In this document: positions 110-45,605 of the stretch, in pieces | Numbering within the stretch: position 1 is the stretch's first letter | Layout of the letters: every line of letters begins with the position of its first letter | Source of the DNA: Bacilli bacterium | GTDB lineage: Bacteria; Bacillota_I; Bacilli_A; RF39; UBA660 | Assembly: GCA_017541325.1 (NCBI GenBank) | Contig: JAFXZI010000012.1 | Location: forward strand, 72,831-136,830 | Direction: 5' to 3' | Length of the DNA: 64,000 bases | Program-made: the position numbers and the translations under genes | Notes under the pieces: model-generated | What the model saw: only the letters and a program-made list of their open reading frames with translations | Told to the model about the DNA's origin: nothing | Database searches by the model: none

Positions 110-670
110 GTGGTGAAGTGTATGTTAAAAGATAAAGATATACTAGATGAAAAATGTAAAATATTGCATCAAGTATCTGAAGAAGTTACTTTTCCAATGA
201 GTGAAACTGATAAAAAGATGATAGATGATATGATTGAACATCTAACTCTTAGTCAAATACCAGAAAAATCTGAAGAGTTAAATTTACGTCCTGGTATGGG
301 GATGGCTGCAGTACAAGTTGGAATACTAAAAAGATATTTCGTAGTAGTTTATGAATATGAAGATCAAAAATTTGAAAATTATATTTTAGTTAATCCTAAA
401 ATAGTTAGTGAATCAAACGAAATGATTTATGTTGAAGAAGGAGAAGGATGTCTTTCAGTTAATAGACCTACTGAAGGAATAGTTCCAAGACATGCAAGAA
501 TTACAATGGAAGGATTTGATCAAGAAGGAAATCCTGTAAGATATAGAGTCCGTGAAGATTTAGCAGTTGCTTTTCAACATGAATATGATCATTTAAACGG
601 AATTATGTTTACAGATAAAATTGATCCAAAAAATCCATTTAAAGATAAAGATAAATATAGAGCAATTTAA
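110..670 (+). CDS. def: peptide deformylase
   Basis: Carries the three PDF signature motifs: GMGMAAVQVG (motif I), EGCLSV (motif II) and HEYDHLNG (the HExxH metal site). Length is about 186 aa. The alternative ATG at 122 is also possible. Confidence 0.9.
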   Translation: MVKCMLKDKDILDEKCKILHQVSEEVTFPMSETDKKMIDDMIEHLTLSQIPEKSEELNLRPGMGMAAVQVGILKRYFVVVYEYEDQKFENYILVNPKIVSESNEMIYVEEGEGCLSVNRPTEGIVPRHARITMEGFDQEGNPVRYRVREDLAVAFQHEYDHLNGIMFTDKIDPKNPFKDKDKYRAI

Positions 671-705
671 AAGAGAAGTTAAACTTCTCTTTTTTATTTT
701 TTTTC
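664..705. terminator. bidirectional rho-independent terminator between convergent def and the pilin-Hint gene
   Basis: The sequence aaaAGAGAAGTTaaACTTCTCTttttttatttttttt forms a perfect 9-bp stem flanked by an A-run and a T-run. It sits between the stop codons at 670 and 694. Confidence 0.6.
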
Positions 706-2154
706 TATATTTTTACAATAATTATAATCGCTTATTATTTGTTCAATACTATCAGGAGATTCTGCTGCTCTTACACCTTCAAACCACTCTTCTGGTATTT
801 CAGGAATATCTTCTTTACTTCTTATCTTTCTATCATCTTTTACATACTTCATATCTTTTACTTTATATATATTATTAATTCTCCAAGATGTAAGTATTCC
901 ATTTCCAAAGAAGTTCATATGTCTTTCAGTAATCATATTACAATATACAACATCTTCATACACTCTTTCTTTTGACACTAAAGTAATATATTTATTATTA
1001 CTACTAAAAGTTTTAGTTCCAATAGGGGTTTGTTCATCATCCATTACTTGAGTAAACATTCCTTTGTCTGCATTAAAAATTCTATGGTTATTTACTACTT
1101 TTAAAGTAGATCCATCTGAGAATTTTAATAAAACAAAACTATCTGATTTTTTTGGTTCCATTATCCATAACGGTTTTGTAAACACTTCTTTTCCTTCATC
1201 AAAATCCCAAGCAAGTATTAAATCATCAGGAGTAACATCTATTAATTTTTTCTTTTTCCTCTTCTTTTTCTTTTTATCATATACTTCTACTTCAGTATCA
1301 GCTACTAAGCAAACATGTGTTACATAATAACAACCACTTGTTTTTTGTTCAGCTACAGTAGTATCACTAGTTATTTTAACTCTGTTAGTACTACTAGTAT
1401 CACATTCTGCTCCAGGATAATAATATACTGAAACAAATTTACTAACTGATGCTCCAAGCACCTCTTTTATAGTTGATGTTGGCTTATTATTACTAATTAT
1501 TGGAGACGTTGTCCAAACAGTTCCATCTCTTTTATGCACTAAATGATAATATTTATCTATTGGCGGTATTGGCTTTACACAACTGCCTGAAACATTAATA
1601 AAATCAATATTTGATGCTAATATTTCTTCTCCATTATTAAGTATTGGTTCCGCTTCACCACCAGGAGTCATAATAGCACTAGTTTGTTTTGTAATATTTG
1701 CTTCACTTATAGGAGAAGGATTGTCTATTTGTCTACCTTTTGGTCTAATAGCATCACTCTTCGTAAGAGCCATTCCATATCCAGCATCATCTATAAACGT
1801 AAAATAGAAATCATATCCAAACTTTTCAGCATTATAATGAACTACGACGTATGCTTGCCTCCAATTACCAAAAGGATTTGTTCCTCCTTTTTCTAAAAAA
1901 ATACAAGAATTATTTTTATCATTACTTACTTGAATATAATATAATCTATTTCCATCTGATAAAGCATCAAAATCGCCTTCATTAACTGCTATAGAAGCTG
2001 CTCTAACAAAAGAGTCTATACTACTTACTAATGTTTTCTTTCTTGATTCAGTAATATATCTAGTTACTGCTGGAATAGCGATTGCCATTAATAACCCTAA
2101 TATTACTATAACTGCAAGTAATTCAATTAATGTAAAACCTTTATTATTCTTCAT
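694..2154 (-). CDS. type IV pilin/pseudopilin-like protein (prepilin-type N-terminus) with a C-terminal Hint (Hedgehog/intein-like) domain
   Basis: Start corrected to the ATG at 2154, which has an AGGTGAT RBS; the upstream part of the annotated ORF is not translated. The N-terminus MKNNKG|FTLIELLAVIVILGLLMAIAIP is a class III prepilin signal with Glu at +5. The middle is a Cys-containing globular region. The C-terminal ~200 aa carries intein/Hint block-like motifs: HVCLVADTEVEV, LKVVNNHRIF and VYCNMITERHMNFFGNGILTSW. A KKKKKRKKKK tract sits 10 aa after the Hint Cys. Confidence 0.75.
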   Translation of the reverse strand: MKNNKGFTLIELLAVIVILGLLMAIAIPAVTRYITESRKKTLVSSIDSFVRAASIAVNEGDFDALSDGNRLYYIQVSNDKNNSCIFLEKGGTNPFGNWRQAYVVVHYNAEKFGYDFYFTFIDDAGYGMALTKSDAIRPKGRQIDNPSPISEANITKQTSAIMTPGGEAEPILNNGEEILASNIDFINVSGSCVKPIPPIDKYYHLVHKRDGTVWTTSPIISNNKPTSTIKEVLGASVSKFVSVYYYPGAECDTSSTNRVKITSDTTVAEQKTSGCYYVTHVCLVADTEVEVYDKKKKKRKKKKLIDVTPDDLILAWDFDEGKEVFTKPLWIMEPKKSDSFVLLKFSDGSTLKVVNNHRIFNADKGMFTQVMDDEQTPIGTKTFSSNNKYITLVSKERVYEDVVYCNMITERHMNFFGNGILTSWRINNIYKVKDMKYVKDDRKIRSKEDIPEIPEEWFEGVRAAESPDSIEQIISDYNYCKNIEKK

Positions 2155-2201
2155 ATTATCACCTACTATATAAATTATATCATACAAAAAAGAAATGACT
2201 A

Positions 2202-7253: not shown

Positions 7254-7275
7254 ATAATCTCCTTTTTTATTTGGT
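7247..7275. terminator. bidirectional terminator between the GDSL gene and the deaminase gene
   Basis: aaaGGAGATTAaaTAATCTCCtttttta forms a perfect 8-bp stem followed by a T-run. Confidence 0.55.
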
Positions 7276-9930
7276 TTTATTCCCTAAATCACCATCTGTA
7301 GTCTTCGTTTTTGTTTGAACAATTTCTTTAAATAATTCATTAGCTGTATCATTTGTTTCAACTGTTCGACTTAATAAACGTAATACTGGTTCTAAAACAT
7401 CTCGATTTTCTAATATATTTTCAAAATGGGATTCCTTACCAAAAATTAAATTATAATACTTTTCTATAAATCCTTTTATATTATTATTGGAAAAGCTTGG
7501 TTTACTAGGAGGTGCAAGTAAATTATAATCTTCTTCAGTTTCAACAAATCTCTTTATATCTATATTTCTTAATTCGTCTAAACGATTTGATGAATTACTA
7601 TTTATCTCATCTTCTACAAATTGTTCTGTAACAAGTGTTATTTCTATGCTTCCATATACTTTAGATTCAAGTAAAAACAACAATCTTTTAGCAATTGCAA
7701 TAGATTTAATAGAACCTTCATCATATAAGTCACTTGCAATCTTTAAAACTTCCATTGCAATCATACTTTTCTCATCATAAGTTCTATCATGTTCATATCT
7801 AGCTATTCTATCTATTTCTATTCTTACTTTTTCTTTTTCACTACTTGTACCATATAGTCTATCTTCTTCTTTTATTGCTTCTACAAAAGATTTAGGTTTA
7901 GGTCGTGCTGTTCTTTTACGAATCTCTGGTTCAATAGTATCTCTTATACGTTTATAACGAGCAAGAGCTTCAGGAGTAATAGCGCCTACTTTAGTAGCGT
8001 GTTTTGCTAAATAATCTCCTTCACTTTTAATAACCCATCCAAGGCTAGAGTCTCCGTCACTCGAACCTCTATCACTACCTTTATCTCCACTATCTCCTGG
8101 TCCAATATCTCCACCTTTACTACTACCATCGCGATCATCAGCTAAATTTTGTTCTTGAAGAAGAGAAGATAAATACATACCACCGCCATCAGTAGATAAA
8201 ACAACTGGTATACCATTTTCTCTATAAAAATCTAAAGGTACATCTTTTAGAGCTGAAATATTAGATAATGCCATATTAGAACTAATATTAACTTCTACTA
8301 CTGCATGCATTTCTTTTAATAAATCAACAAGTTCTGGACATTCTCTAATATTTACTCCATGGCCAATTCTAATTGTTGGTGGAGGAATTTTAATTGGCTC
8401 ATCTCCAAACATTCCTTCACATTTTTTATTTATTAATTCTATAGCACTTTTTATAGCTAGTAATGTCAACAAAACATTATCAGTAGCTTCAACATATTCT
8501 CCTGCATGTATTCTTAAAACACTATTAGGAAACATATGAAGTACAGGAAGAATCAATGCCATTTTATCTGTAAAAGGGGTAACTTCTAAGGGAGTATCAT
8601 CCTTTTCATTTCCCATTATATCTACACCAACAATTTTACCAGATTTTAAATAAGATAATAATTTATCTGCACTAAATCCATATAATGGATCTGTTGCTTC
8701 TATATCTCCTTGTACTAAAGCATGAAACGCATCAATTGAATCCGTTCTATTTATGCTATATAAAAGATTAAATCTTGGATCATTAGGATATTTAGCTGCT
8801 ATAGCTTGAAGTGTTACAAAATTTGAAAAACTAATTTCAGAATAATGAACACCTTCTCTTTCAAATTTTTCTAAACATCTTTCAAAGTAGTCTAAATATA
8901 CATGTTTTTCTAAATGTTTAATAAGGATTTCAGTTCTTTTAGCATTAATTGCATCTAATATTTCGCTTTTTTTATGTGTTTGTTCATTAGAATTTAAAGG
9001 ATTAAGAATTCCTATTAACTCTTCCTTCCAGTTATTAAAAGGCATATATAAGGCGCTACTAGAATCGCCCTTTTTATATGGCTCTATTTTTTGAAGCATT
9101 AATAACAATAAATTTCTACCCAAAGCAGATATTCTTTTTTCTTCATACATCTTTTTTAATTCTTCAGTAACCTTCTCCTTGAATCCTTCTGTATCACCAG
9201 CAAAATATTGTCTCCCATATTTTCTAAATATTTGTTGAACATCTTTAGCTGCTATTTTTAAATCATCATATGTTTCAAAGAACAATCTGTCAGGATCATC
9301 TTCTGGCATAGAACGAACATGAGCTTCAGCACATTGAGACATTAATTCTCTTCTTTGATTATTTGCTGCTGTTAACTCAGCAAAATGTACTATTTCATCC
9401 CTTTTAATAGACATCGATAATTTAAACTCAGGAGTAATATTGATTCCATATCTTTTTGCAAATACTTCTAATTCATCTGGATTTAAAATTTCTATAAAAT
9501 GCGTATGAAGTTCAGTATGTATTTTTTGTTCACTATCCCATTCTCTTCTTAAAAATCTTTCAATATCAGATTGTCTCTTAATTATTCTTTCATATATAGA
9601 TGGATACTTTTCCTTTATTTCACCTTCAATAGCTTGATAGAATTTTATTAAATCAATATGTCCTGTTCCTTGATATAATTGCCTATAATATTCATGATAG
9701 ACACTTAATACACGAAGTTCTGTTGTAGTTATAGGATTGGTAGTAACTCTACCATTTGAAATTGTAAAAACTACCATATTTCCTATTTTTCCTATTATAT
9801 TTCCTGGATTAACACTATCTATATCAATAAAATCAAGCAAAAAACCTAAATCAGATGATTTAGCTGTCAACTTTTGTGTTATAGGATCATAATATATTAT
9901 GCTTCCTTGATCATTTAATACTATATCCAT
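7267..9930 (-). CDS. large adenosine/AMP deaminase-fold (amidohydrolase) protein, RdrB-like, with a Gly/Ser/Asp-rich linker and a C-terminal ~270-aa domain of unknown function
   Basis: 887 aa. The deaminase motifs appear in canonical order: KIHTELHTHF (HxH), LRIHAGEY (HAGE), RIGHGVNI, EVNISSNMAL (CPxSN-like) and VVLSTDGGGMY (SLNTDDP-like). An insertion of about 330 aa separates HxH from HAGE. An AGGAGG RBS lies 9 nt after the upstream stop. Confidence 0.7.
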   Translation of the reverse strand: MDIVLNDQGSIIYYDPITQKLTAKSSDLGFLLDFIDIDSVNPGNIIGKIGNMVVFTISNGRVTTNPITTTELRVLSVYHEYYRQLYQGTGHIDLIKFYQAIEGEIKEKYPSIYERIIKRQSDIERFLRREWDSEQKIHTELHTHFIEILNPDELEVFAKRYGINITPEFKLSMSIKRDEIVHFAELTAANNQRRELMSQCAEAHVRSMPEDDPDRLFFETYDDLKIAAKDVQQIFRKYGRQYFAGDTEGFKEKVTEELKKMYEEKRISALGRNLLLLMLQKIEPYKKGDSSSALYMPFNNWKEELIGILNPLNSNEQTHKKSEILDAINAKRTEILIKHLEKHVYLDYFERCLEKFEREGVHYSEISFSNFVTLQAIAAKYPNDPRFNLLYSINRTDSIDAFHALVQGDIEATDPLYGFSADKLLSYLKSGKIVGVDIMGNEKDDTPLEVTPFTDKMALILPVLHMFPNSVLRIHAGEYVEATDNVLLTLLAIKSAIELINKKCEGMFGDEPIKIPPPTIRIGHGVNIRECPELVDLLKEMHAVVEVNISSNMALSNISALKDVPLDFYRENGIPVVLSTDGGGMYLSSLLQEQNLADDRDGSSKGGDIGPGDSGDKGSDRGSSDGDSSLGWVIKSEGDYLAKHATKVGAITPEALARYKRIRDTIEPEIRKRTARPKPKSFVEAIKEEDRLYGTSSEKEKVRIEIDRIARYEHDRTYDEKSMIAMEVLKIASDLYDEGSIKSIAIAKRLLFLLESKVYGSIEITLVTEQFVEDEINSNSSNRLDELRNIDIKRFVETEEDYNLLAPPSKPSFSNNNIKGFIEKYYNLIFGKESHFENILENRDVLEPVLRLLSRTVETNDTANELFKEIVQTKTKTTDGDLGNKTK

Positions 9931-15956: not shown

Positions 15957-16856
15957 CTAACTCCTGATATTTTTGCTTATTAACGCTACCGGATCAGCCA
16001 ATTTTTTTATTCTTTCTATAATTCTTCTTGCATTTATTTTATCTATACTTGTATTTTGTAAAACAAAGTGTTTCTCTAATTCTTCCATTGTTAGGTTAGA
16101 TGTAAAAAATGTTGGAAGATTTTCATTCATTCTGTGATGAAGAAGGGGTTCTAATACTTCATCTCTAGTCCAATTTGTTAAATATTCAGCTCCTATATCA
16201 TCAAGCACTAAGATAGGGACAGTTTTAAGCAAACTAAATTTATCTCTATAATCGGTATCTAATGATTCTTTTAAATCTCTTAACATTTCTGGAACATGGA
16301 CAATTATACTTTTAACATCTTTTTTTGCAAGTTCATTCATTAAAGCAGATATTATATATGTTTTACCTGATCCAAAAGAACCATATAAATAAATACCTTT
16401 ATCTCTTGTTTCAGTAAAATAATTAGTATAATAACTCTTTATCTTTTTTAATATTTCTACTCTATTAACATCATTAGTATAAATACTTGATAAAGAAGCA
16501 TCTCTAATTTCTTTTGGTATATCAAAAAGAGTAATATTATCTTTATATTCTTCTAGTTTAGTATATTTACAAGCAACATATCCAAATAATAGTTTTTTAC
16601 CTTTAGTGATTTCTGGAGTAAGTACGTAACCTCTAACATTATTTTTACACTCAAGTAGTCCACTACATTTAGAGCAATTACTACATTCAAAACTACATTC
16701 TTCTAAACGAGAAGTATATTTCATTAAAACATCTTCTGGTAAATCTAAAGTACTTATTAATTTTTTAAAATCTTTATCTTTTAAAGAATTAATAAATTCT
16801 TCTCTTAACTTGTTATCTAAACTAGTATTATTAATAATTTTATCAACTTTTTTCAT
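15957..16856 (-). CDS. dnaI: primosomal helicase loader DnaI (DnaC-like AAA+)
   Basis: The N-terminal zinc-binding domain has a Cys cluster (CSFECSNCSKCSGLLEC). The C-terminal AAA+ region has Walker A GSFGSGKTY and Walker B VLVLDDIG. Confidence 0.8.
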   Translation of the reverse strand: MKKVDKIINNTSLDNKLREEFINSLKDKDFKKLISTLDLPEDVLMKYTSRLEECSFECSNCSKCSGLLECKNNVRGYVLTPEITKGKKLLFGYVACKYTKLEEYKDNITLFDIPKEIRDASLSSIYTNDVNRVEILKKIKSYYTNYFTETRDKGIYLYGSFGSGKTYIISALMNELAKKDVKSIIVHVPEMLRDLKESLDTDYRDKFSLLKTVPILVLDDIGAEYLTNWTRDEVLEPLLHHRMNENLPTFFTSNLTMEELEKHFVLQNTSIDKINARRIIERIKKLADPVALISKNIRS

Positions 16857-16925: not shown

Positions 16926-16948
16926 AAAATAACCTTAAGGTTATTTTA
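16926..16948. terminator. terminator after the prepilin peptidase gene (palindrome, bidirectional)
   Basis: aaaaaaAATAACCTTAAGGTTATTttatat is an 18-bp palindrome flanked by an A-run and a T-run. It abuts the stop at 16946. A dnaI promoter with a TATAAT -10 lies just downstream on the minus strand. Confidence 0.55.
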
Positions 16949-17707
16949 TATATTTAGTATTGAATGCATATCTATTTTAAATATTATTATTAATAAACAC
17001 GCTATTAAAAGAAATGGTCCATATGGAATTATATTATCTCTACTTTTAATAAATAAAAATAAAGATAAAGGAAATGCTATAAAGCTAGATAAGAATATAC
17101 TAAACAAACTCATCCATGGTCCAACAGCTATTCCTATATAGAACATAAGCTTAATATCTCCTCCACCAAGAGATTCTTTTTTAAGCATTAAATTACCTAA
17201 AAGCATAAGTAAATACATAAGTAGAAAAGCACCTATTCCTGCTGCTAAACTAAATAAGGCATCTTCTACTCCATTAATGGCAAATCTAAGTAGAATTACC
17301 ATTATAGATGCTATTAAAGTAAATTGATCAGGAATAATTAAAAAATTAATATCACTTACTAATACTATAGCAAAAAAAGATGCAGTAATAATTGCAAGTA
17401 CAAAATCAAAACTAAATCCTAAAAACCAATAAGACATGGCAAATAGTATTCCAGTTAATAATTCTGTAATAGTATAAAAAGGTGCAATTTTTTCTTTACA
17501 TGCTCTACATTTACCACCTTGTATTAAATAAGAAAAAACTGGTATTAATTCATACCATTTTAATCTATGTTTACAATGTGGACAAAAGCTTCCTGGTTTA
17601 ACTATAGATAATTTTTTTGGAATACGCCAACCAACTACATTAAAGAAAGATCCAAAAAGCAGTCCAAAGATAAATATAAATATTGTATAAAATACTTTTA
17701 ATTCCAA
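16946..17707 (-). CDS. type IV prepilin peptidase (A24 family, PilD/ComC-like)
   Basis: Polytopic membrane protein. The cytoplasmic tetra-Cys motif CPHC...CRAC and acidic residues typical of A24 peptidases are present. Confidence 0.85.
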   Translation of the reverse strand: MELKVFYTIFIFIFGLLFGSFFNVVGWRIPKKLSIVKPGSFCPHCKHRLKWYELIPVFSYLIQGGKCRACKEKIAPFYTITELLTGILFAMSYWFLGFSFDFVLAIITASFFAIVLVSDINFLIIPDQFTLIASIMVILLRFAINGVEDALFSLAAGIGAFLLMYLLMLLGNLMLKKESLGGGDIKLMFYIGIAVGPWMSLFSIFLSSFIAFPLSLFLFIKSRDNIIPYGPFLLIACLLIIIFKIDMHSILNI

Positions 17708-17718
17708 TTTAATCCCCC

Positions 17719-19137
17719 CTAGATTTGTCCATACATATCAAACATTGGAACCATGATTGAAATTAAGATAAATCCAACAGATACTGCTAGTAAGATAATT
17801 ACCATAGGCTCAAGCAATGATTTTAATGCAGTTGTTGCATTATGTTGTAAGTTTTCAAAGTGCTCAGCAACTTTTTGCATCATTAATGCAAGTTGTCCAG
17901 TTGATTCACCAGTAACAAGCATTTCATAAGCAACTACTGGGAAAGCCCACTCACCTTTAAAAGTCTCACTAAGCTTAGATCCTTTAGATAAACCTATTAA
18001 AGTACGTGAAAGTATTTCTTTATATATTTCATTATTAGTTAAGTTAGATAGAATTTCCATTGAATCTGTAATAAATACACCGTGATTTAATAATGATGAG
18101 AAAGTACGAGTTATAGTTGCAACTTGTCCATATATAACAACATTACCAAATACAGGCATTTTCATAAGAACTATTTGCATTGTACGTCTAAATTCTTTTA
18201 CATTTTTATAAGACCAAATAAAAGTAAATAAGAAAGTACCAACTGCAAGTATCATAGCCCACCAATAAGACTTAATAAAATCACTGGCACCAATTACAAA
18301 TTTAGTAATTGCAGGAAGATCAGCACCTTGGGACTCAAACATTCCAACGAATTGTGGAACGATATAAACTACCATGAATATCAAAACAGCAATAACGACA
18401 ATTAAAATAACCATTGGGTAAATTAAAGCTGAAATTAATTCTTTCTTGGTATTTTCAGTTTTAGTAAAGTAATCTGCCATTTCATCAAGTGTACCAGCAA
18501 GGTCACCAGTCATTTCAGATGTCTTAACCATGTTAATTAAGATACTAGGGAATGCTTTTCCTTGTTTTTCTAAGGCAACAGAAAAAGGTTCACCTAATAC
18601 TAATTCATATATAACTTTATCATATATTCTTTTAAGTTGAGGTTTAGATGTTTGTTTAGCAAGGATTCTCATTGAATCGATAAGAGGAATTCCTGCTTTA
18701 ATATAAGTACCTAATTGTACAAGCGCAAATGATAAATCACCTGTACCAATCTTACCACTACCAATATTTATATCAAAATCATATTTATCACGTTTTTTAA
18801 TTTCTAATATTTCATAACCTTCATTAGATAGGAAAACTCTAACTGCTTGTTCGTCTTTACCATCAAAGATTCCTTTTACAATAGCCCCTTGATCAGTACG
18901 AACAACATATCTATATGAATTTAATTTTACATTATAATCTTCTTCTTTTTTCTCTTCTACATTCTTGAACTCATTACTTTGTTGTTTTACTCTTTCAAGT
19001 TCTTGAACAAGTTCTTCACCATATAATTTATTAGGATCTATTTCTTGTTCATTTTTGAAGATTAAACCTTTTAAATATACAATTCCTTGACCAGCACGTC
19101 TAAGGATAAGTCCAGGAAACTTTAATATATTTTTCAT
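17719..19137 (-). CDS. type II secretion/type IV pilus platform protein (GspF/PilC/ComGB family)
   Basis: Two GspF-like repeats with three TM segments. Start corrected to MKNILKF (AGGGGAAGA RBS). It precedes the prepilin peptidase by 11 nt. Confidence 0.8.
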   Translation of the reverse strand: MKNILKFPGLILRRAGQGIVYLKGLIFKNEQEIDPNKLYGEELVQELERVKQQSNEFKNVEEKKEEDYNVKLNSYRYVVRTDQGAIVKGIFDGKDEQAVRVFLSNEGYEILEIKKRDKYDFDINIGSGKIGTGDLSFALVQLGTYIKAGIPLIDSMRILAKQTSKPQLKRIYDKVIYELVLGEPFSVALEKQGKAFPSILINMVKTSEMTGDLAGTLDEMADYFTKTENTKKELISALIYPMVILIVVIAVLIFMVVYIVPQFVGMFESQGADLPAITKFVIGASDFIKSYWWAMILAVGTFLFTFIWSYKNVKEFRRTMQIVLMKMPVFGNVVIYGQVATITRTFSSLLNHGVFITDSMEILSNLTNNEIYKEILSRTLIGLSKGSKLSETFKGEWAFPVVAYEMLVTGESTGQLALMMQKVAEHFENLQHNATTALKSLLEPMVIILLAVSVGFILISIMVPMFDMYGQI

Positions 19138-19222
19138 AAGATCTTCCCCTATCATCATTCTAATAAAAATTATAACATAGATTTTTAAAAGAAAAAAGAT
19201 AGAAATATATATTTCTATCTTT

Positions 19223-20860
19223 TTAATCTTTACTCTTTTTTAATACTTCTATGATAGATGAAATCATTTGTTTTTTACGAGAAACTATATCTTCTAAGAA
19301 AATACCTTCATAAGCATCTACATCAAATGCTTCACTAATAATATCACAAGAATTTGTATTAAATATTACATAAGAACCATTTCTAATAATATCAGTAACA
19401 AATAAACAAGCGATTCCATATCCTTCAGCGTTTTCCATTTTATTAAGTTCAGATACATATTTATCTATATCACGAGATACTTCATCATAATTAGTAGTAA
19501 ATATTTGACCAATACCAATGTTGATATTTTCTGAATTAAACTTCTTGAAGTCTTGATAAATTATTTCATCTGCATCTTTTCCTTCAAGAGATGAACCAAC
19601 TTTAAACATTTCAAGTCCATAATTATAGTAATCAATACCAAGTCTTTTTGATAAAGATGAAACGGCTTCTACATCAAGAGATGTAGTAGTAGGACTCTTT
19701 AATAGTAGTGTATCTGATAATATTGCAGATAATAGTAATCCTGCTATTTTATCATCGAATTCTACAAATCTTTCTTTATATAAATTATAAATGATTGTAC
19801 AAGTAGATCCAACCGACATATTTCTAAAGTTTATAGGAGAATTAGTTGCAATAGTACCCAATTTATGGTGATCTATTATTTCTACTATTTGAGCTTCTTC
19901 TATACCTTCAGCAGATTGTTCTTTTTCGTTATGATCAACTAAAACAACTTTCTTTTTAGATAATTCTTCTGCTCTAGTATATTCAATTAATCCAAGACAT
20001 TCTCCTTTATTATTTACAACTGGATAATTAGTATGTTTCTCTCTTTTAGCAATAATATGAAAGTCTGTTAAATAATCACTATCTTTAAATGTTACAGGAT
20101 TAGATAATTCATTAATTATTTCTACATAATTTGCTAAAACTAATAAATTACTAACTTCAAAACTACCAAAACTAGTTGCAATAATATTTACTTTATTTTT
20201 TCTAGCTATTTCTAAATGTTCTTCTTTAATTTGACTATCTCCAACTAATATTATTAGTTTAACTCCAGATTCAACTGCATACTCTAAAATACTATGTCTA
20301 TCCCCTATTACTAAAATATCATCAGATTTTAAAGATACATCATTAAGAAATGTTGTACTTCTATATGTAGCAGTAATTACATTTCCTTCTATTTCTTGAT
20401 CAAACTTTAATATTTCTTTTCCATTTACCGTATCTAGAACGTTATCATAAGATGTTATTAAATGTTTTCTTTCACTTTCAATCATTTCACGAGCAATACC
20501 TTTTAACGTAACTAAACCTAATAATTTGTTTTTATTAGATTTATCTACTAATGGAATTCCTGATGCTGATAAATTACTCATTAAATCATAAGCATTTTTA
20601 ATTGATTCATGTTTATCTACAAAAAATCTTTTATGATATGATAAATCTCTAATTTGAACTTTAACATCATTTAAGTATCTAGGTGCTTCAACTCCAAATC
20701 TATCTAATACATATTTAGTTTCATTATTAATAGCACTTAAAGCACATGGAATAGCTTTAATATTCTTTTTTGTACTATTTAAAAAATTAGCCATAGCAAT
20801 CGCAGCACATATAGAATCAGTATCTGGTTTTCTATGTCCAAAAACATAAATATTTTCCAT
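19223..20860 (-). CDS. CBS-domain-containing family II (DHH/DHHA2, Mn-dependent) inorganic pyrophosphatase
   Basis: The N-terminus has the DHH motif FGHRKPDTDS. An internal CBS pair is present, and the C-terminus carries DHHA2 (DHNE...GxGxxF...). Start corrected to MENIYVFGH (AAGGGGTG RBS). Confidence 0.8.
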   Translation of the reverse strand: MENIYVFGHRKPDTDSICAAIAMANFLNSTKKNIKAIPCALSAINNETKYVLDRFGVEAPRYLNDVKVQIRDLSYHKRFFVDKHESIKNAYDLMSNLSASGIPLVDKSNKNKLLGLVTLKGIAREMIESERKHLITSYDNVLDTVNGKEILKFDQEIEGNVITATYRSTTFLNDVSLKSDDILVIGDRHSILEYAVESGVKLIILVGDSQIKEEHLEIARKNKVNIIATSFGSFEVSNLLVLANYVEIINELSNPVTFKDSDYLTDFHIIAKREKHTNYPVVNNKGECLGLIEYTRAEELSKKKVVLVDHNEKEQSAEGIEEAQIVEIIDHHKLGTIATNSPINFRNMSVGSTCTIIYNLYKERFVEFDDKIAGLLLSAILSDTLLLKSPTTTSLDVEAVSSLSKRLGIDYYNYGLEMFKVGSSLEGKDADEIIYQDFKKFNSENINIGIGQIFTTNYDEVSRDIDKYVSELNKMENAEGYGIACLFVTDIIRNGSYVIFNTNSCDIISEAFDVDAYEGIFLEDIVSRKKQMISSIIEVLKKSKD

Positions 20861-20968
20861 GAACATTCACCCCTTCGTTTAGCACATTATATCATAACAT
20901 TTAAAAAAAAGGAATTACTTCCTTCTATATCTAGTAACTAATAAAATAAAGAATAAGAAAATTCATTC

Positions 20969-33142: not shown

Positions 33143-33511
33143 CTATTCTACTTCACAGTTTGACCAACAATTTAAAGGTTGATCATATCCATTAACAATA
33201 GAATTTACAATAGGAAATAATATATTAATAATAAAAATAATAATAAATGCTAATAAAGCAATTCCTATATTTTTAAACAATTCATTTTTAGACTTTTTGT
33301 TTTTAGTAAAAATATATATACCTTTAAGTACAAAATATAAAGGAATTACATATAAAAGAATATGTAATACATCTTTTATAAATCTTGCCCTTTCAGAAAT
33401 ATCACAACAAGAGATACCACCTCCACCCGGAAGTGTAAAAAATCTAACTAGAAAGGCAATAACTAATACTATAATTATTATTAATTTAAAATTCTTAATT
33501 CTTTTATTCAT
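33143..33511 (-). CDS. small polytopic membrane protein (hypothetical)
   Basis: 122 aa with three predicted TM segments. It lies between ruvA and ruvB. Confidence 0.4.
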   Translation of the reverse strand: MNKRIKNFKLIIIIVLVIAFLVRFFTLPGGGGISCCDISERARFIKDVLHILLYVIPLYFVLKGIYIFTKNKKSKNELFKNIGIALLAFIIIFIINILFPIVNSIVNGYDQPLNCWSNCEVE

Positions 33512-33520
33512 AATACTTTC

Positions 33521-34078
33521 CTACTTTAATAATAGTTTTAAAGATTCTTTTACTTGATCTTCTATACTTAAAGATTTATCTAATTTAGGAATTACTACTT
33601 TTATCTCTTTATCTTTATATCCTAATCCTTTTAATACTTCAATTAATTCATCAGTTGTATTATCTACTTCAGTACTACTTACATCCATATTAAGTTTTCC
33701 TTTTAAATCAAGAATTATTTGTTTTGCAACTTTATCTCCAATTTTAGGAAATTTCTTTAAATATAATACATTTTCTCTTTCAATAGCATCCGCTATTCCT
33801 GCAACAGATCCTGTTGCAAGCATTGGTAGAGCCATTCTACATCCTAATCCTTTTACGCTTATTAGTTTTAAGAATAATTCTTTTTCTTCTTCTGTTTTAA
33901 ATCCATAAAGACCTTCTTCATCTTCTCTAACTAAATGATAGACATAAACTTTATATTCTTTATCTATTTCAAATGAATAAGGATTACCTGTATATATTTG
34001 ATATCCTACTCCATTATTATCTAAAACAATATAATTACCTTTAATATCTGTTACTTTTCCAAAAATATAATTATACAT
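33521..34078 (-). CDS. ruvA: Holliday junction DNA helicase RuvA
   Basis: The N-terminus MYNYIFGKVTDIKGNYIVLDNNGVGYQIY is the OB domain. HhH motifs (LISVKGLGCRMAL) are present. 185 aa. Confidence 0.9.
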   Translation of the reverse strand: MYNYIFGKVTDIKGNYIVLDNNGVGYQIYTGNPYSFEIDKEYKVYVYHLVREDEEGLYGFKTEEEKELFLKLISVKGLGCRMALPMLATGSVAGIADAIERENVLYLKKFPKIGDKVAKQIILDLKGKLNMDVSSTEVDNTTDELIEVLKGLGYKDKEIKVVIPKLDKSLSIEDQVKESLKLLLK

Positions 34079-34080
34079 AT

Positions 34081-34680
34081 TTACCTCCTATATAATCTAT
34101 ATATCATTACACTTATTCCATATGCAAGTCCAAGTATTAAAACTGCCCAAAAAATAGATATATATATTGGTTGGCTTAATACTCTTAAAAATGGATATGG
34201 TCCATCTACTACTTTTAATATATTTAAAATAATTAATACTATTGCATATAAAACTACTGTTCCTATTCCATATTTTTTATCACTTTCTACTATTTTAACT
34301 TTATCAAAACAAGTAAATGCTACTACAAATATAATAGGACATATGAAATGATGAAATAACATTGTTCCATATAATAAGAAATAATAATAATTAAAATTAT
34401 ACATTGGTGCAAGTATAAATAATACTACCAAGAATGTTACTGTTAAACATACTGCCGCAATATATTTAAGTATTGATAACCATTTAGGTATTTTCTTTTT
34501 GTTAATAACAAAAAATAAATATAAACTAGATGCAAAAAGTGCCAAAATATTACTATCTTCTGTAAAATATTCAATACTTATACAATTGTTAGTATTAATT
34601 GAAATCATAAAACCAACTATTTCAAATATAACTACTAAAACATTCAGTATTATAGATACTTTCTTTTTCATTTTAATCAT
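34081..34680 (-). CDS. polytopic membrane protein (hypothetical)
   Basis: 199 aa with 5-6 TM segments. I saw no recognisable motif. Confidence 0.4.
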   Translation of the reverse strand: MIKMKKKVSIILNVLVVIFEIVGFMISINTNNCISIEYFTEDSNILALFASSLYLFFVINKKKIPKWLSILKYIAAVCLTVTFLVVLFILAPMYNFNYYYFLLYGTMLFHHFICPIIFVVAFTCFDKVKIVESDKKYGIGTVVLYAIVLIILNILKVVDGPYPFLRVLSQPIYISIFWAVLILGLAYGISVMIYRLYRR

Positions 34681-36223
34681 CTACCTTATTATTTATTACT
34701 TCTCTACTAATTATTTTATCATCTATATTACAATATCCTAAATATCCATTATATTCAGATATTGCTCTACTAATTCTATTTTTATGGAAGAAAATATTAG
34801 ATATATATTTATCATTCTTTTTATCAAATTTCATAATATCATTATCAATAATTATATTATTTGATTCTATTAATAAATAATCTTCATCTGACTGTTCAAA
34901 TTCATATAAATGATAATAATATGCTTTATCTTTTTCATAGTATTTTTCTACTATAAAAATACTACCATCATCTCTTCTATATTTTCTAACATCAGAATTA
35001 ATTTTTGCTAAACTAGCATCAAAATTTGTACTAAATTCATGACCATTATATGAAAATGAACCAATATAACTATTTTCGTTTATAGCCTCGATTCGATCTT
35101 CATTTAAAAATTTATTTATTAAGTAATCATCTTGTCTCTTTAATTGATTATATTCGTGTTTTAAACTACTTTCATTTTGTTTATAACTATTGTTTTTATT
35201 TGTAATTCCTTCTATATTTTTTATTTTTGAAGAAAGTTCTGCTTTTCTTTTTTCATTAATAAAGAAATTATTTTCAGATATTATTATTCTTGGATTAAGA
35301 ATTCTTCCTCCTTTTAAATAATTACAGTATAAATACTTATATAATGTTTTATTATTCATTTTTAATATTTCTATACCACTTAATAAGAAAGATGTTTTAT
35401 CCTCTCTTACAAATCTATTAGCTTTTATTTGTAATTTATTATTATTAATTTTTCTATCTAATGTAATTAATTCAGCACTGTCGAAAACAGAAATATTTTG
35501 ATTATAATTTTGTATTACTTCACTTCTTAGAGGAAGGTGTTCTCTGTTAAATAAATAAACATTATAATTACCAAAGAATCTACTTTTTAATACTCCACCA
35601 TAATGATATAAATATGAATCATATCCTAAATCTAAACATATAACTTTATTCTCTACTAGAATAATATTCCATGCATAACTTCTATTATTACCTTCTACAA
35701 ATAATGATCTAATTCCTAATCTATCCATTATTTCTTTAAAGATTGTACTAAATCCATAACTAGTAGCTTTTCTAGTTAATAATCCAAGTAAAGTAGTAGA
35801 TTTTCCTTCAAAAAGAGAATCTATATCATATTTAATATATCTTTTTAACTTATTATAAATATAATAAACTTTTTCTACATCATTATAATCTTTTTCAATA
35901 AGTTCTCTTTCAATAAGTTCAAATATTGTTACAACATTTATTAATTCATTACGAGAATAATAATTTTTACCTTCATAATACTCTTTATTATTAGTTCTTA
36001 ATTCTCTTTCTTCATCATACCCACCAGCTACCCTAAATTTTAAATTAGGATAATCTATTATATTTAATAATAAACCAGATTTAATACCTACTGTGTTATT
36101 TAATCTAATAGTTAGTTCCACATTATTATGAGACTTTATAAAATTATTTATATCTACAACATCTTTTTTAGTAATAGTACTTAAATTTATTTTAAATCTT
36201 TCCATACTACACCACCAAATCAT
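34673..36223 (-). CDS. transglutaminase-like superfamily protein, probably catalytically inactive
   Basis: The core block ATSYGFSTIFKEIMDRLGIRSLFVEG...SYAWNIILVENKVICLDLGYD aligns to the TGase-like GxCxxFA...RxxGIPAR...HAW...D pattern. The Cys and His positions are replaced by Ser/Tyr. Confidence 0.5.
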   Translation of the reverse strand: MIWWCSMERFKINLSTITKKDVVDINNFIKSHNNVELTIRLNNTVGIKSGLLLNIIDYPNLKFRVAGGYDEERELRTNNKEYYEGKNYYSRNELINVVTIFELIERELIEKDYNDVEKVYYIYNKLKRYIKYDIDSLFEGKSTTLLGLLTRKATSYGFSTIFKEIMDRLGIRSLFVEGNNRSYAWNIILVENKVICLDLGYDSYLYHYGGVLKSRFFGNYNVYLFNREHLPLRSEVIQNYNQNISVFDSAELITLDRKINNNKLQIKANRFVREDKTSFLLSGIEILKMNNKTLYKYLYCNYLKGGRILNPRIIISENNFFINEKRKAELSSKIKNIEGITNKNNSYKQNESSLKHEYNQLKRQDDYLINKFLNEDRIEAINENSYIGSFSYNGHEFSTNFDASLAKINSDVRKYRRDDGSIFIVEKYYEKDKAYYYHLYEFEQSDEDYLLIESNNIIIDNDIMKFDKKNDKYISNIFFHKNRISRAISEYNGYLGYCNIDDKIISREVINNKVDD

Positions 36224-36908
36224 TTAGACAAATAATAGAATCTTTATATACAATTATTTTTAAAGATACTAAATCATCTATTAAAGCTTTATTCTTTTGA
36301 TATTGAGCTTCAGATATAGATATTGTTTTTAAAGCACTATATTTATTAATAAAATCTAAATCTATTATTGAAGAGTTATCAAGTCTTAATGTATCTATTA
36401 AAGTAAAATGATATAGTGCACTTATATTACTTATATTAGAAAAACTAAGATCTATTTCTAATAAATGTGGTAATTGTTCTAAAAAAGATATTGAATCAAT
36501 TGACATATTAATTAATCCAATTGTATTTAAATGTTTAAATCTCGTAACATCTAATATATTATTGATAGTACAATTATTAATAATTAATTTAGTTATTTTA
36601 AGTTTTGAAAGTATTCCTAAATTAGTAATATTACAATTAGTAAAAGATAGACTTTTTAAATTATTTAAACTAAGTAAATTATCTATATAGTCTTTATCTA
36701 TATTAGTATTACTAATTTCTAATATTTCAAGATTATTAAAATATTTTAATATTTTAGAATCTATTTTATTAAAATGATTAAATAAACCAATAGAGTCAAG
36801 AGATAACTCCTTGACTCTATTTAATTCTTCGTTGGTGAAATTAGTACTAGTTTTATTTAAATAGTCCATAAGATATAATTGTAATTCCAAATAAGGAATA
36901 TTAATCAT
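36207..36908 (-). CDS. leucine-rich repeat (LRR) protein
   Basis: About eight 22-aa repeats of the form LxxLxxLxLSxTNIxxIxxL (NLKSLSFTNCNITNLGILSKL...). No signal peptide is evident. Confidence 0.6.
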   Translation of the reverse strand: MINIPYLELQLYLMDYLNKTSTNFTNEELNRVKELSLDSIGLFNHFNKIDSKILKYFNNLEILEISNTNIDKDYIDNLLSLNNLKSLSFTNCNITNLGILSKLKITKLIINNCTINNILDVTRFKHLNTIGLINMSIDSISFLEQLPHLLEIDLSFSNISNISALYHFTLIDTLRLDNSSIIDLDFINKYSALKTISISEAQYQKNKALIDDLVSLKIIVYKDSIICLNDLVV

Positions 36909-39936: not shown

Positions 39937-39960
39937 ATAAAAGAAATAGATATCTATTTC
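39937..39960. terminator. terminator at the 3' end of the pilus operon
   Basis: AGAAATAGATATCTATTTCT is a 20-bp perfect palindrome followed by TTTATTTT on the minus strand. It overlaps the sortase stop. Confidence 0.5.
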
Positions 39961-40916
39961 TTTTTCTTATTATCTTTATTCTTTATTTTATATTTAATTA
40001 CTCTATATATTAGGATTAAGAAAATAATTATTACAACAATTAATAATAAATATAAAATCATATCTCTAATAGAAATATTAATAGAGAAATTATTTCTTCT
40101 TTTCTTTTTATTCTTATATACTTCTCTTTCTTGTTTTTCTTCTTTTTTCTTTTCAATACCATCATCTTTATTTGATTCAGTTATCTTAGCAAGAAGAACT
40201 GCCCTTTTAGTTGATCCACTAGAGTCACAAGTAGACAAAACTATTAGTTTATCAGTAGAAACTAAAATTGTATCTGATTTATTTTTAGCTACACTACCAA
40301 TATATTCTATAATATCTTTATTATAATTATTTCTAATCCTAAAGATATCAAATACATAGTCATCATATGAACTAACTACAGCATAATTAACTATTTCTAC
40401 ATCATATATTTTGTTTGAAGTATAAAGAGTTCCTTTTAAATGTTTAGAAAAGAAATCTTTGTTTTCATATTTCTTTATATCAGTAAACATCGTATTAGAA
40501 TTCATATGATGTCCATAAATTGCCGTATATTGGTCATTAAAATTCTTATCATTACGATAATCCATAAAAATACTACCAGAAGTAGCATATTCATGTTTAT
40601 AGTTTCTATCTAGATATTCACTATTATCTTTCCCTTTTACAACAGGGTAATCTATTTCTGTATCATCAATAGTAATCCATCCAACAATATCTGGATTTAT
40701 TTCTTGTAAATCATCTAAATAAAATACTTCCTTTTTATCTTCATCTGTTTTAGCAATTGGTTTAAGAGACATTATTTCTTCATCTAGTTCTCCACCTTTT
40801 TGAACTAGATAATTATCATATAATGCGTAGATACCAATTAGTATTATTAAAACAAAGAAAATAGTAATAAGGAATTCTATTATTTTATTTGTTCCTTTTA
40901 TAATTAAATTAATCAT
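39954..40916 (-). CDS. sortase, class B-like (pilus-associated)
   Basis: Has an N-terminal TM anchor. The IDYPVVKGKDNSEYLDRNY block is like the SrtB IDYP[VI][VM]Q..DN.[FY]YL motif. A His (YGHHMN) is present and the TLxTC Cys appears as LVLSTCDSS. There is an additional C-terminal TM segment plus a basic tail. Confidence 0.7.
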   Translation of the reverse strand: MINLIIKGTNKIIEFLITIFFVLIILIGIYALYDNYLVQKGGELDEEIMSLKPIAKTDEDKKEVFYLDDLQEINPDIVGWITIDDTEIDYPVVKGKDNSEYLDRNYKHEYATSGSIFMDYRNDKNFNDQYTAIYGHHMNSNTMFTDIKKYENKDFFSKHLKGTLYTSNKIYDVEIVNYAVVSSYDDYVFDIFRIRNNYNKDIIEYIGSVAKNKSDTILVSTDKLIVLSTCDSSGSTKRAVLLAKITESNKDDGIEKKKEEKQEREVYKNKKKRRNNFSINISIRDMILYLLLIVVIIIFLILIYRVIKYKIKNKDNKKKK

Positions 40917-41889
40917 CCTTATTACCTATCTTTCTTAATAATATCAAACCAACTATACCTAAAATAATTAATATAATAAACGGAAGTATATCTAAGAATA
41001 CTCCTGTTATTGCAACATCATAATCTCTTCTATTTATAATTATGATATAGTTATCTTCATCATTATCAGTAGTTGTATAATTATTAATTACATCATAAGT
41101 AGTTTCCCAACTACGAGAACCAATCTTTTGAATTGAATAATGTGTTCCAATTGGTATTTGATTTATATTATTTTCAGTACCAATTGTTATAGATTGATCT
41201 TTTTTCAAATATATATACACAAAATTATCTTTATCTTTAACAGTATAATAATTAGAAGTATTTATATTTTTTTTATTAAACTTAATAATTGGATCTTGTC
41301 CATCAATATAATATCTATCTCCTACTTTACCATTTATAACTAATTTAAATTTAAAATATTCATCTGTTTTAGATAACTTTCCTTCTGTAGTATTAGTAAT
41401 TTTAATATTAGTATAATTATGATTATGATTAAAAATTAAATCACTTTTAGAATTATCTGTTACATTATATGCTTGTCCATATACAGATGTAATTCCTGCA
41501 CTACCATATAATACATATATATAATATTTCTCGTTAGATATAGAATAATTTTGCATATCACTTGATGAAATTTCTTCTATTAAATATTTATATATACCAT
41601 AATTAGTATAATGAACATTTGAAAAATCTATTTCATAATCATAAGAAACTATATTATTATGCCCTTTAACATTATTAAGAGTTACTACAACTTCTGTAGG
41701 CTCATTACTAACACCACTTTTGTTATTACTATCAGGAGTAATTCTATAAGTGAAAGTATTAGATACAGTATTATTAGTATTTAATATTTGATCAGTTAAA
41801 GTAATACTAGTATCATAAGCTAATGCTTTAACTGGTAATAAAACAAATATAAAAATAAATATAAAGATTATTCTTTTATTCATTTTCAT
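40909..41889 (-). CDS. sortase-assembled pilin-like surface protein (minor pilin candidate)
   Basis: Has a signal peptide. It shares the NTFTY and TEGKLSKTDEYFKFKL blocks with the other two pilins. The C-terminal sorting signal is VAITG, a hydrophobic stretch, then RKIGNKDD. Confidence 0.55.
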   Translation of the reverse strand: MKMNKRIIFIFIFIFVLLPVKALAYDTSITLTDQILNTNNTVSNTFTYRITPDSNNKSGVSNEPTEVVVTLNNVKGHNNIVSYDYEIDFSNVHYTNYGIYKYLIEEISSSDMQNYSISNEKYYIYVLYGSAGITSVYGQAYNVTDNSKSDLIFNHNHNYTNIKITNTTEGKLSKTDEYFKFKLVINGKVGDRYYIDGQDPIIKFNKKNINTSNYYTVKDKDNFVYIYLKKDQSITIGTENNINQIPIGTHYSIQKIGSRSWETTYDVINNYTTTDNDEDNYIIIINRRDYDVAITGVFLDILPFIILIILGIVGLILLRKIGNKDD

Positions 41890-41902
41890 ATTATCCTCCT
41901 CC

Positions 41903-42460
41903 TTAAATACCTCTTATTTGTAATTTTCCTATTACTCTTCCAACAATATCTTTTTTCTCAATCTTTCCAAAACTTCTTGAATCATTAAAATCTAGTCTAA
42001 AATCATTTGTAACAAAATATTCATCTTCTCCTAATATACAAGGATAAGTAACACTTGATCCTTCTGAAAGTTCTGTATCATAAAATCCTTGTATTTCTTC
42101 TCTAAATCCATTAATTAAGAGAGTTCCTTCTTCAATTGTTATCATATCTCCATTAGTTCCAGATATTCTATATATATTATATTCATTATCTTGTTTAACT
42201 AAAACGACATCTCCAACGACATAGTCTTTGTCCAATCTATAATAAATTAATAAGTTTCCATCTGTTATATATGGTGACATAGAACTACCATTCATACGAT
42301 GGACTCCAAAAATAACAAAGAAAATAATAAATATTAAAACAAGAATAACTGCAATTTTAATTAAAAGTATTAATAGATTGTTCTTAGTCTTTTTCTTTTC
42401 ATTATTCTTTGCTTTTTCTTTTTCTATTTCTTTTTTATCATTCTTTTTCCAAAAATTCAT
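41903..42460 (-). CDS. signal peptidase I (S26 family), pilus-associated SipA/LepA-like
   Basis: Has a TM anchor, then GSSMSPYI (the SM-x-P Ser box), a KQDNEYNIYRISG block and a GDNRxxSxDSR-like DFNDSRSFG block. It is embedded in the pilin/sortase cluster, as in streptococcal pilus islands. Confidence 0.7.
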   Translation of the reverse strand: MNFWKKNDKKEIEKEKAKNNEKKKTKNNLLILLIKIAVILVLIFIIFFVIFGVHRMNGSSMSPYITDGNLLIYYRLDKDYVVGDVVLVKQDNEYNIYRISGTNGDMITIEEGTLLINGFREEIQGFYDTELSEGSSVTYPCILGEDEYFVTNDFRLDFNDSRSFGKIEKKDIVGRVIGKLQIRGI

Positions 42461-42558
42461 ATTATCACCACTATTATATTACTATATTTAAAATATCATA
42501 TTTTTGATTTTTTATAAATGCTTTTCAAATAAAAAAACTGCATATGCAGTTTTTTATA

Positions 42559-43611: not shown

Positions 43612-43701
43612 ATTATCTCTCCTATTCTATCTAATTTAAGATTATCACTTATAATATTATCTATCAACGTAAATTTACATCTTAGAATGTATATTTTACA
43701 T

Positions 43702-45549: not shown

Positions 45550-45605
45550 ATACGTTCGCCTCCCATTATTATTATTCAATTATATTATAATAGAAAAGCG
45601 CACAA

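Follow-up and report, generated by a model that had tools for sequence, protein, structure and literature searches.

At one end of the 64,000-nucleotide stretch of DNA analysed here (contig JAFXZI010000012.1 of a Bacilli bacterium, positions 72,831 to 136,830, G+C content 26%; the whole stretch is called the window below) lies a gene whose product is, by both its signal sequence and the organization of its α1 helix and head, a type IV pilin, and whose C-terminal domain is, according to structural modelling, a member of the Hint superfamily (Table 1). Class III signal and α1 helix are followed by a globular head, a hypervariable segment and then a portable module of 205 residues that comprises a Hint core and a conserved tail. 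The identical 486-residue product was called by gene callers on 19 independent metagenomic contigs. In addition, the gene order mraZ, rsmH, ftsL, pbp2B, pilin-Hint gene and then, in convergent orientation, def is common to the window and to its nearest relative among the reference genomes, an uncultured rumen Erysipelotrichaceae metagenome-assembled genome (MAG; locus L001), with the neighbouring proteins being 77-85% identical between the two; the pilin-Hint gene thus belongs stably to the chromosome and did not arise through an error of assembly. The placement of the Shine-Dalgarno-like AGGTGA favours the ATG at 2154 over an upstream TTG at 2187, and promoter-like sites of the kind listed upstream of it are no commoner than in shuffled sequences.

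Table 1. Features of the pilin-Hint gene and of pilus-related genes in the window
Feature	Position	Strand	Details and basis
Whole gene, modular type IV pilin with C-terminal Hint module	694..2154	-	486 aa; start ATG 2154; stop codon 694-696
Hairpin terminator	669..693	+	common to the pilin gene and the convergent def gene
Shine-Dalgarno-like AGGTGA	2159..2164	-	4 nt upstream of ATG 2154; read from the sequence
Promoter-like site TAGTCA-16-TG-TATAAT	2174..2201	-	in the 47-nt gap after pbp2B; sequence motif, weak evidence
Class III leader peptide MKNNKG, residues 1-6	2137..2154	-	removal by PilD predicted
Mature N-terminus (Phe+1, Glu+5) and hydrophobic α1 assembly helix, residues 7-58	1981..2136	-	N_methyl; phmmer; AF2 helix 9-58
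Globular pilin head, residues 59-157	1684..1980	-	~65% identity with many pilins carrying other C-terminal modules
Hypervariable middle region, residues 158-281	1312..1683	-	22-26% identity among orthologues; low pLDDT at 193-279
Predicted scissile junction Val281/Cys282 (Hint block A nucleophile)	1309..1314	-	Cys invariant (310/310), -1 residue variable; cleavage inferred
Hint core, residues 282-423	886..1311	-	block A CLVADT; block B His357; blocks F/G N406...H412-x-N414...GILTS423
Poly-Lys tract KKKKKRKKKK, residues 294-303	1246..1275	-	tip and return strand of the elongated β1-β2 hairpin
His357 codon, block B catalytic His	1084..1086	-	invariant (310/310)
Conserved tail of 62-63 aa, residues 424-486	697..885	-	two short strands and two helices; N428, Y430, K436, G460, R462, E465 conserved
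Prepilin peptidase PilD (A24_N_bact and Peptidase_A24)	16946..17707	-	predicted leader-processing enzyme
PilC-type platform protein (T2SSF x2)	17719..19158	-
Sortase	39954-40916	-	sortase-dependent pilus-like cluster
S26 signal peptidase	41903-42460	-	sortase-dependent pilus-like cluster
Two DUF7601 surface proteins	42559-43611, 43702-45579	-	sortase-dependent pilus-like cluster

A type IV pilin is recognized by a short basic leader ending in Gly, followed by Phe+1, Glu+5 and some 20 hydrophobic residues (IPR012902 / PF07963), and by a long N-terminal α1 helix that packs on a β-sheet head, and both sets of features were found. The prepilin signal that an initial annotation had read from the sequence, MKNNKG/FTLIELLAVIVILGLLMAIAIP with Glu+5, was borne out, on the N-terminus MKNNKG/FTLIELLAVIVILG, by Pfam N_methyl (PF07963; 36.2 bits, cutoff 21.2), by TIGR02532 (31.9, cutoff 16.3) and by a phmmer alignment with the N-termini of solved pilins. 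The full-length AlphaFold2 (AF2) model displays a canonical α1 helix over residues 9-58, strands within 71-132 and a β-sheet head extending to about residue 190, with a predicted local distance difference test score (pLDDT) of ~80-90, then a low-confidence stretch (residues 193-279) and, finally, a very confident C-terminal domain. The head (residues 1-157) is ~65% identical to that of many pilins that bear other C-terminal modules, among them DUF285, LRR_5 and Flg_new. As already noted in the initial annotation and confirmed by Pfam, genes for PilD and PilC are situated ~15 kb away; this pair (16946-19158, minus strand) is isolated, i.e. neither pilB, nor pilM-O, nor any pilin gene lies beside it, its neighbours on the two sides being genes for an IstB/DnaC-like ATPase (15957-16856) and for a DHH-CBS phosphoesterase (19223-20866). 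No assembly ATPase had been seen in the window, and indeed no T2SSE/PilB ATPase was detected in its 64 kb (Pfam on all open reading frames of at least 300 aa) nor in the 10 kb to the left; a motif scan of the window yielded no other prepilin reading frame, and the 10 kb to the left contained none either.

The proposal that a Hint fold follows the pilin was upheld by modelling and structure comparison. A model of residues 270-486 built from a 63-sequence alignment reached a pLDDT of 93.5 and a predicted template modelling score (pTM) of 0.89, and the values tabulated for its comparison with known Hint structures were 16.8 for BUBL BIL2 (6tmm), 16.6 for the NpuDnaB intein, 16.0 for the Clostridium thermocellum BIL domain (2lwy) and 15.5 for Hedgehog (1at0). 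Foldseek searches of the PDB and BFVD were concordant with a Hint fold, the best structural match in BFVD being named merely ‘Hint domain-containing protein’, and a profile of the module retrieved BIL2 by sequence (E = 2e-3). In the profile search that had been suggested as a check, Pfam Hint (PF01079) did match residues 278-366, but with 22.1-24 bits it remained below its gathering threshold of 29.7. None of the curated models PF01079 (Hint), PF07591 (PT-HINT) and PF14890 (Intein_splicing) reached its gathering threshold on the query module, and no NCBIfam model covered the query's Hint region; a Pfam scan of 63 family members at E≤0.01 gave recurrent sub-threshold matches, to Hint in 18, to Intein_splicing in 3 and to PT-HINT in 2 of them.

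Which reactions would such a domain be able to carry out? Three residues, Cys282, His357 and Phe318, do not vary in an alignment of 310 unique homologous modules, and Asn414 (308/310), Ser423 (307/310) and Thr287 (283/310) are conserved, whereas the residue preceding the cysteine varies across the family, as expected for Hint chemistry. The nucleophile is Cys282; the C289 of the initial annotation is a slip in numbering. The earlier reading of block B as ‘T...H’ holds for the histidine; the Thr position is occupied by Thr in 216 of the 310 modules and by Val in the query. When aligned to BIL2 and Npu DnaE, Ser423 falls on the penultimate intein position, which is a near-invariant Ser in this family and not His, and residue 424 falls on that of the terminal Asn. 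Trp occupies it in the query; across the 310 modules it is Cys in 194, Leu in 21, Ser in 16, Asn in 15 and Trp in 11, so that the terminal His-Asn is absent, as had been stated. Since there is no terminal Asn, Asn cyclization, C-terminal cleavage and splicing are unavailable, and only the N-terminal N-S acyl shift at Val281/Cys282 remains chemically available, in agreement with the chemistry originally predicted. An intein is characterized by a terminal (His-)Asn, a +1 Cys/Ser/Thr and insertion into a host protein whose exteins become ligated; the present module lacks the terminal Asn and a C-extein ligation partner and is terminal, not inserted, and an intein that splices was therefore ruled out.

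The initial annotation further held that no C-extein follows. The Hint core is in fact succeeded by a conserved tail of 62 residues, which is confidently modelled (means per block of 10 residues of 93-97 up to residue ~479, then 83). Its N428 (309/310) and Y430 (307/310) are conserved as strongly as the catalytic residues, and K436, G460, R462 and E465 are conserved as well; the Hint core and the tail thus behave as one unit. The positions of the tail and of the poly-lysine hairpin relative to Cys282 are taken from chain connectivity.

The poly-lysine tract had been regarded as an insertion that is encoded by an A-run and could make ribosomes slide or stall. It is no oddity of this protein, it is not encoded by a long A-run, and ribosome sliding is not supported. 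In the module model, the tract lengthens the Hint β1-β2 hairpin, and it is a conserved property of the family, with K302 kept in 300/310 modules next to a subgroup of modules without a ~7-residue insertion at this place. The codons of the tract (AAA AAG AAA AAG AAG AGG AAA AAG AAA AAA) contain no A-run longer than 6, and the longest runs in the tracts of 26 homologues range from 3 to 7. AAG makes up 51% of the lysine codons of the tracts vs 19% in the background (Fisher p = 3e-21), and a simulation with background codon usage gave a median longest run of 13 and P(run ≤6) = 0.008. Codon bias and short runs together therefore imply that the coding sequence has been selected against A-runs: the alternation of AAA and AAG keeps them at ≤7, apparently because homopolymeric A is selected against where genomes are very rich in A+T. 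An unbroken row of ten Lys/Arg codons at a G+C content of 26% might well suggest that the tract acts at the level of the mRNA or the ribosome, in that ribosomes slide, shift frame or stall on an A-run or that the run gives rise to phase variation; the short runs and the codon bias, and the conservation of the tract as protein in a modelled β-hairpin, nevertheless render such a role scarcely credible, and sliding and phase variation in particular were ruled out on the codon evidence. What the hairpin does track with is export, because it is present in 103 of 156 exported proteins vs 16 of 140 proteins with no signal and none of 52 viral copies (p = 4e-23). An export-linked hairpin written in codons that avoid A-runs is an unexplained feature open to testing.

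How far does the module extend beyond this pilin? In BLAST searches, homology to other proteins starts sharply at residues 277-282 and reaches to within ~6-30 residues of their C-termini. When the module profile was searched against 1.84 billion representatives of clusters at 50% identity, 818 proteins passed a cutoff of E≤1e-30 and 2,194 one of E≤1e-10, and in 181 of 209 analysed proteins the module ends ≤15 aa from the stop codon. It is internal in two contigs from giant-virus bins (L096 7356-9047 and L126 7398-9059; IMG/VR GVMAG), where ~160 residues come after it, and 130-146 residues come after it in the bacterial loci L052 and L056. As far as reference genomes are concerned, the module is nearly confined to MAGs of uncultured bacteria from gut or rumen (Erysipelotrichaceae, ‘Tenericutes’, Clostridia, gut Alphaproteobacteria, Gastranaerophilaceae and one Nomurabacteria), where it is often present in several copies or in tandem. 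Clostridia MAGs, for instance, contain tandem arrays of three copies (L009 1386-6058) and two copies (L018 6001-8443), the genes of which have prepilin-like ‘KGITLIAL’ N-termini without Glu5. N-terminal types were assigned for 296 complete unique proteins: a prepilin signal with Glu5 (GFTLIE, AFTLAE, GRSMVE) is present in 55, a prepilin-like signal without Glu5 (GITLIAL) in 31, an ordinary signal or transmembrane anchor in 70, and no signal in 140. The query's own sub-cluster consists nearly entirely of Glu5 pilins (13/15).

Viral contigs of IMG/VR, including those of jumbo phages and of some giant-virus bins, contribute 69 loci to the group with no signal, and there the module caps the C-terminus of proteins of 200-2679 aa with N-termini of the tail-fibre type, in a structural-gene context. 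It is on the IMG/VR scan, these N-termini and the gene context that the link to phages rests; PHROGs returned no match for 10 of the no-signal proteins. Clustering of neighbouring genes across 59 loci revealed no conserved neighbour, and the module is therefore considered self-contained. SecA, found downstream in 8 loci, and a SecG-like gene, found in 6, recur within one Clostridia lineage, to which their recurrence is limited, probably as a matter of lineage synteny. Taken together, the module represents a large uncharacterized Hint family that resides on pilins, exported surface proteins and phage tail fibres.

Four sister pilins (P0013, P0040, P0041 and P0046), with heads 55-65% identical to that of the query, end in a canonical PT-HINT domain (65-70 bits, cutoff 27.7) with Cys1, TxxH and VHN, after which only 4-11 residues (+1 = Ala) and no toxin follow; in all four, a predicted Ig-like variable segment precedes the PT-HINT. 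The presence of two Hint clades at the same terminal position of the same pilin suggests that their function concerns the pilin's own C-terminus and not the delivery of a downstream cargo. Among orthologues of the query, identity amounts to 72-78% in the α1 helix, 51-63% in the head, 22-26% in residues 158-281, 74-75% in the Hint core and 58-71% in the tail, i.e. the Hint core is the most constrained region and directly follows a hypervariable segment.

We consider it probable, on sequence and model grounds, that Hint core and tail together constitute a self-removing C-terminal cap or pro-domain of extracellular fibre proteins, with the cleavage itself, its timing and the role as cap or chaperone all being inferred. 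After export, processing by PilD and folding of the Hint domain, Cys282 would attack the carbonyl of Val281 with the aid of His357, and the thioester formed by this N-S acyl shift would be resolved by a nucleophile, water being the default, given that neither a terminal Asn nor splice-acceptor chemistry is available. A Hint-tail fragment of 24.1 kDa beginning with CLVADTEVEVYDK would thereby be lost, leaving a pilin of 30.2 kDa (residues 7-281) that ends in ...SGCYYVTHV, so that the hypervariable segment would become the new C-terminus. The invariance of Cys282 and His357, the missing terminal Asn, the mostly terminal position, the distribution over fibre proteins and the sister PT-HINT pilins would all fit this scheme. 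The proposed cleavage is also in line with published behaviour, in that cleavage products are the main outcome with BIL domains that have no +1 nucleophile, and the N-S shift is the only reaction that Hedgehog Hh-C employs (PMC7664689). The module is read as a cap because its distribution over pilins and phage fibres mirrors that of the Peptidase S74 domain, whose combination with a pilin is, with 29 proteins, the sixth commonest modular-pilin architecture (PMC8179133 Dataset S1).

Several points weigh against this interpretation. For every member of the family, cleavage is a prediction, and the Val in place of the block-B Thr of the query, together with the Asn (N406) that the family has in place of the block-F Asp, makes catalytic efficiency uncertain. 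In the window, with neither a pilus ATPase nor other pilins, assembly of the pilin-Hint protein into filaments is only putative. To our knowledge, Hint domains do not act as folding or oligomerization chaperones. Moreover, a simple cap would not obviously need the near-invariant polar residues of the tail (N428, Y430, R462 and E465), nor the export-linked poly-lysine hairpin, and both hint at an extra function such as the binding of a substrate or nucleophile, or oligomerization.

It is from these unaccounted-for features that the alternative of a ligation reaction draws its appeal. As in Hedgehog or BUBL, the Cys282 thioester might be captured by a specific nucleophile, be it a lipid head-group, an amine or hydroxyl of peptidoglycan or teichoic acid, a lysine of a neighbouring pilin or a group on a host or receptor, so that pilin or fibre would become covalently attached at its C-terminus; tail and cationic hairpin would then form a region recognizing the adduct or the surface, by analogy with the sterol-recognition region of Hedgehog. 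N428 and Y430, which are as invariant as the catalytic pair, lie by chain connectivity 4-6 residues past the position that falls in the intein active site, the restriction of the hairpin largely to exported proteins would fit docking on an anionic envelope, and Hedgehog sets a precedent for the use of the N-S shift alone (PMC7664689). Phage copies, however, are made in the cytoplasm and retain the tail without poly-lysine, so that the tail cannot be dedicated to a nucleophile of the envelope; a conserved partner gene is lacking; and the sister pilins, with a plain PT-HINT, a C-extein of 4-11 aa and no tail, suggest that simple cleavage suffices. Capture of this kind is possible, although we judge it rather unlikely. 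In an elaboration of it, the module would serve as a protein-ligation device: the C-terminus of an extracellular fibre subunit, be it a pilin, an adhesin or a phage tail fibre, would be turned into a thioester and captured by an envelope lipid or polymer, by a lysine of the adjoining subunit or by a receptor on a target cell. Type IV pili would thereby be anchored or cross-linked covalently and fibres would act as ‘covalent harpoons’, with the invariant tail and the export-linked hairpin as the site that recognizes the nucleophile or surface. This is put forward as a speculative idea and is held to be unlikely; if it is true, bacteria and phages would possess an equivalent of Hedgehog cholesteroylation or BUBL conjugation.

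Alternatively, the module might not cleave at all, Hint core and tail staying in place as a tip-exposed functional part that, for example, binds anionic polymers or DNA via the poly-lysine. Modular pilins with bulky C-terminal effector modules are common and thought to be located at the tip (PMC8179133), paralogous heads do carry modules of the adhesin type (DUF285, LRR_5, Flg_new), and the query is devoid of the block-B Thr. Without catalysis, though, it would be difficult to account for the invariance of the cysteine and the block-B histidine from phages to bacteria; the module occupies the very C-terminus and starts exactly at the cysteine, and its viral copies have no poly-lysine, all of which makes retention of an uncleaved module improbable. 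Still further from the evidence is a release of the polymorphic-toxin type, in which the Hint domain would free the 62-residue tail so that the pilus could deliver it as an effector or toxin. Weak PT-HINT matches in 2 of the 63 scanned members, the true PT-HINT domains on sister pilins, and the pattern of a conserved N-terminal ‘carrier’ with variable C-terminal parts would be in keeping with it, and yet the terminal Asn that C-terminal cleavage would require is absent, the tail shares the conservation of the Hint core and is not polymorphic, the PT-HINT sister pilins end 4-11 residues after the Hint domain, and no immunity-like neighbour recurs; we therefore deem it very unlikely. A polymorphic toxin paired with an immunity gene was ruled out on two of these grounds, the conserved tail and the lack of a partner recurring in the 59 loci.

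How, then, does the predicted self-removing cap compare with known systems? In the definition that Amitai et al. are said to have given in 2003, A-type BIL domains possess Cys1 and a C-terminal His-Asn and no +1 nucleophile. The query's family has the Cys1 and lacks the His-Asn, whereas the four sister pilins do fit this definition (VHN/A). With BIL domains in general (Amitai et al. 2003; C. thermocellum 2lwy) and with Tetrahymena BUBL BIL2 (6tmm/6y75), the module shares Cys1, the block-B His, the lack of a +1 splice nucleophile, its occurrence in variable, extracellular or secreted host proteins and the expectation of cleavage rather than splicing (PMC7664689). It differs from them in having Thr-Ser-[Cys/Trp/...] instead of a terminal His-Asn, and its family is terminal, carries the conserved 62-aa tail and, in exported members, the poly-lysine hairpin, and scores below the Pfam Hint thresholds. 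As in the Hedgehog Hog domain (1at0), the N-S acyl shift alone would release an N-terminal functional domain. A Hog domain has a Gly-Cys junction, a sterol-recognition region and a cholesterol adduct, none of which was found here: the junction is Val-Cys, with a variable -1 residue in the family, the tail has no detectable similarity to the sterol-recognition region, any adduct is only hypothetical, and the distribution is bacterial and phage.

The PT-HINT domains of polymorphic toxins (PF07591) likewise occur in exported, modular and fast-diversifying proteins, including the sister pilins at the same position; unlike them, the query module falls below the PF07591 threshold, has no His-Asn, and is followed by no toxin domain or immunity gene. 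The resemblance to Peptidase S74 (IPR012902-IPR030392; PMC8179133), a C-terminal self-removing domain of the intramolecular-chaperone type that is found on phage tail spikes and fibres and on type IV pilins, is a functional analogy only, as the folds are unrelated, S74 uses a Ser-Lys dyad where the Hint domain would form a Cys thioester, and a chaperone or trimerization role for the latter is hypothetical. The modular pilins PilB and PilC of Streptococcus sanguinis (Raynaud et al. 2021, PMC8179133) also combine an N-terminal pilin with a grafted C-terminal module in a monoderm host; here, by contrast, the grafted module is predicted to remove itself and not to be a displayed effector. Dataset S1 of PMC8179133 contains a single ‘IPR012902 - PF07591’ protein, which is left undiscussed, and the query's Hint subfamily is invisible to that InterPro-based survey.

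Elsewhere in the window, a sortase-dependent pilus-like cluster (39954-45579, minus strand) also holds a 326-aa protein without assignment; in view of this cluster and of pilD, pilC and the pilin, the organism seemingly combines components of sortase-type pili with those of type IV pili. Beside a DUF5305 protein (60720-62960, minus strand) lies another protein resembling S26-type signal peptidases, 382 aa long, in which the domain spans only residues 258-325. Between ruvA and smc (33143-36908, minus strand) there are reading frames of 122, 199 and 516 aa without a Pfam match and one of 233 aa with a weak LRR_4 match, and 7267-9930 (minus strand) encodes an 887-aa protein with a partial adenosine-deaminase domain (residues 521-602) as its sole Pfam match.

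We know of no type IV pilin that undergoes C-terminal autoprocessing, and of no previous link between Hint chemistry and pilus biology. Within the library searched, no description connecting Hint or BIL domains with pilins or phage tail fibres was retrieved; a match concerning phiCbK proved to be an unrelated TerL intein. The Hint autoprocessing domain as such is known, whereas the pilin-Hint architecture and the two unexplained conserved additions, the tail and the poly-lysine hairpin, are new. In practical terms, the module would indicate where many phage receptor-binding proteins, and adhesins of uncultured gut microbes, truly end, and it might be developed into an engineering tool, i.e. 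a compact, splice-incompetent, N-cleaving Hint domain, for instance for thioester generation. Should the predicted cleavage prove true, a large unannotated Hint subfamily of at least 818 clusters at 50% identity, with members in bacteria of gut and rumen as well as in jumbo phages and giant-virus bins, would be defined; phage receptor-binding fibres and pilins would have a second self-removing C-terminal module besides Peptidase S74, and the biogenesis of type IV filaments would include an extra maturation step.

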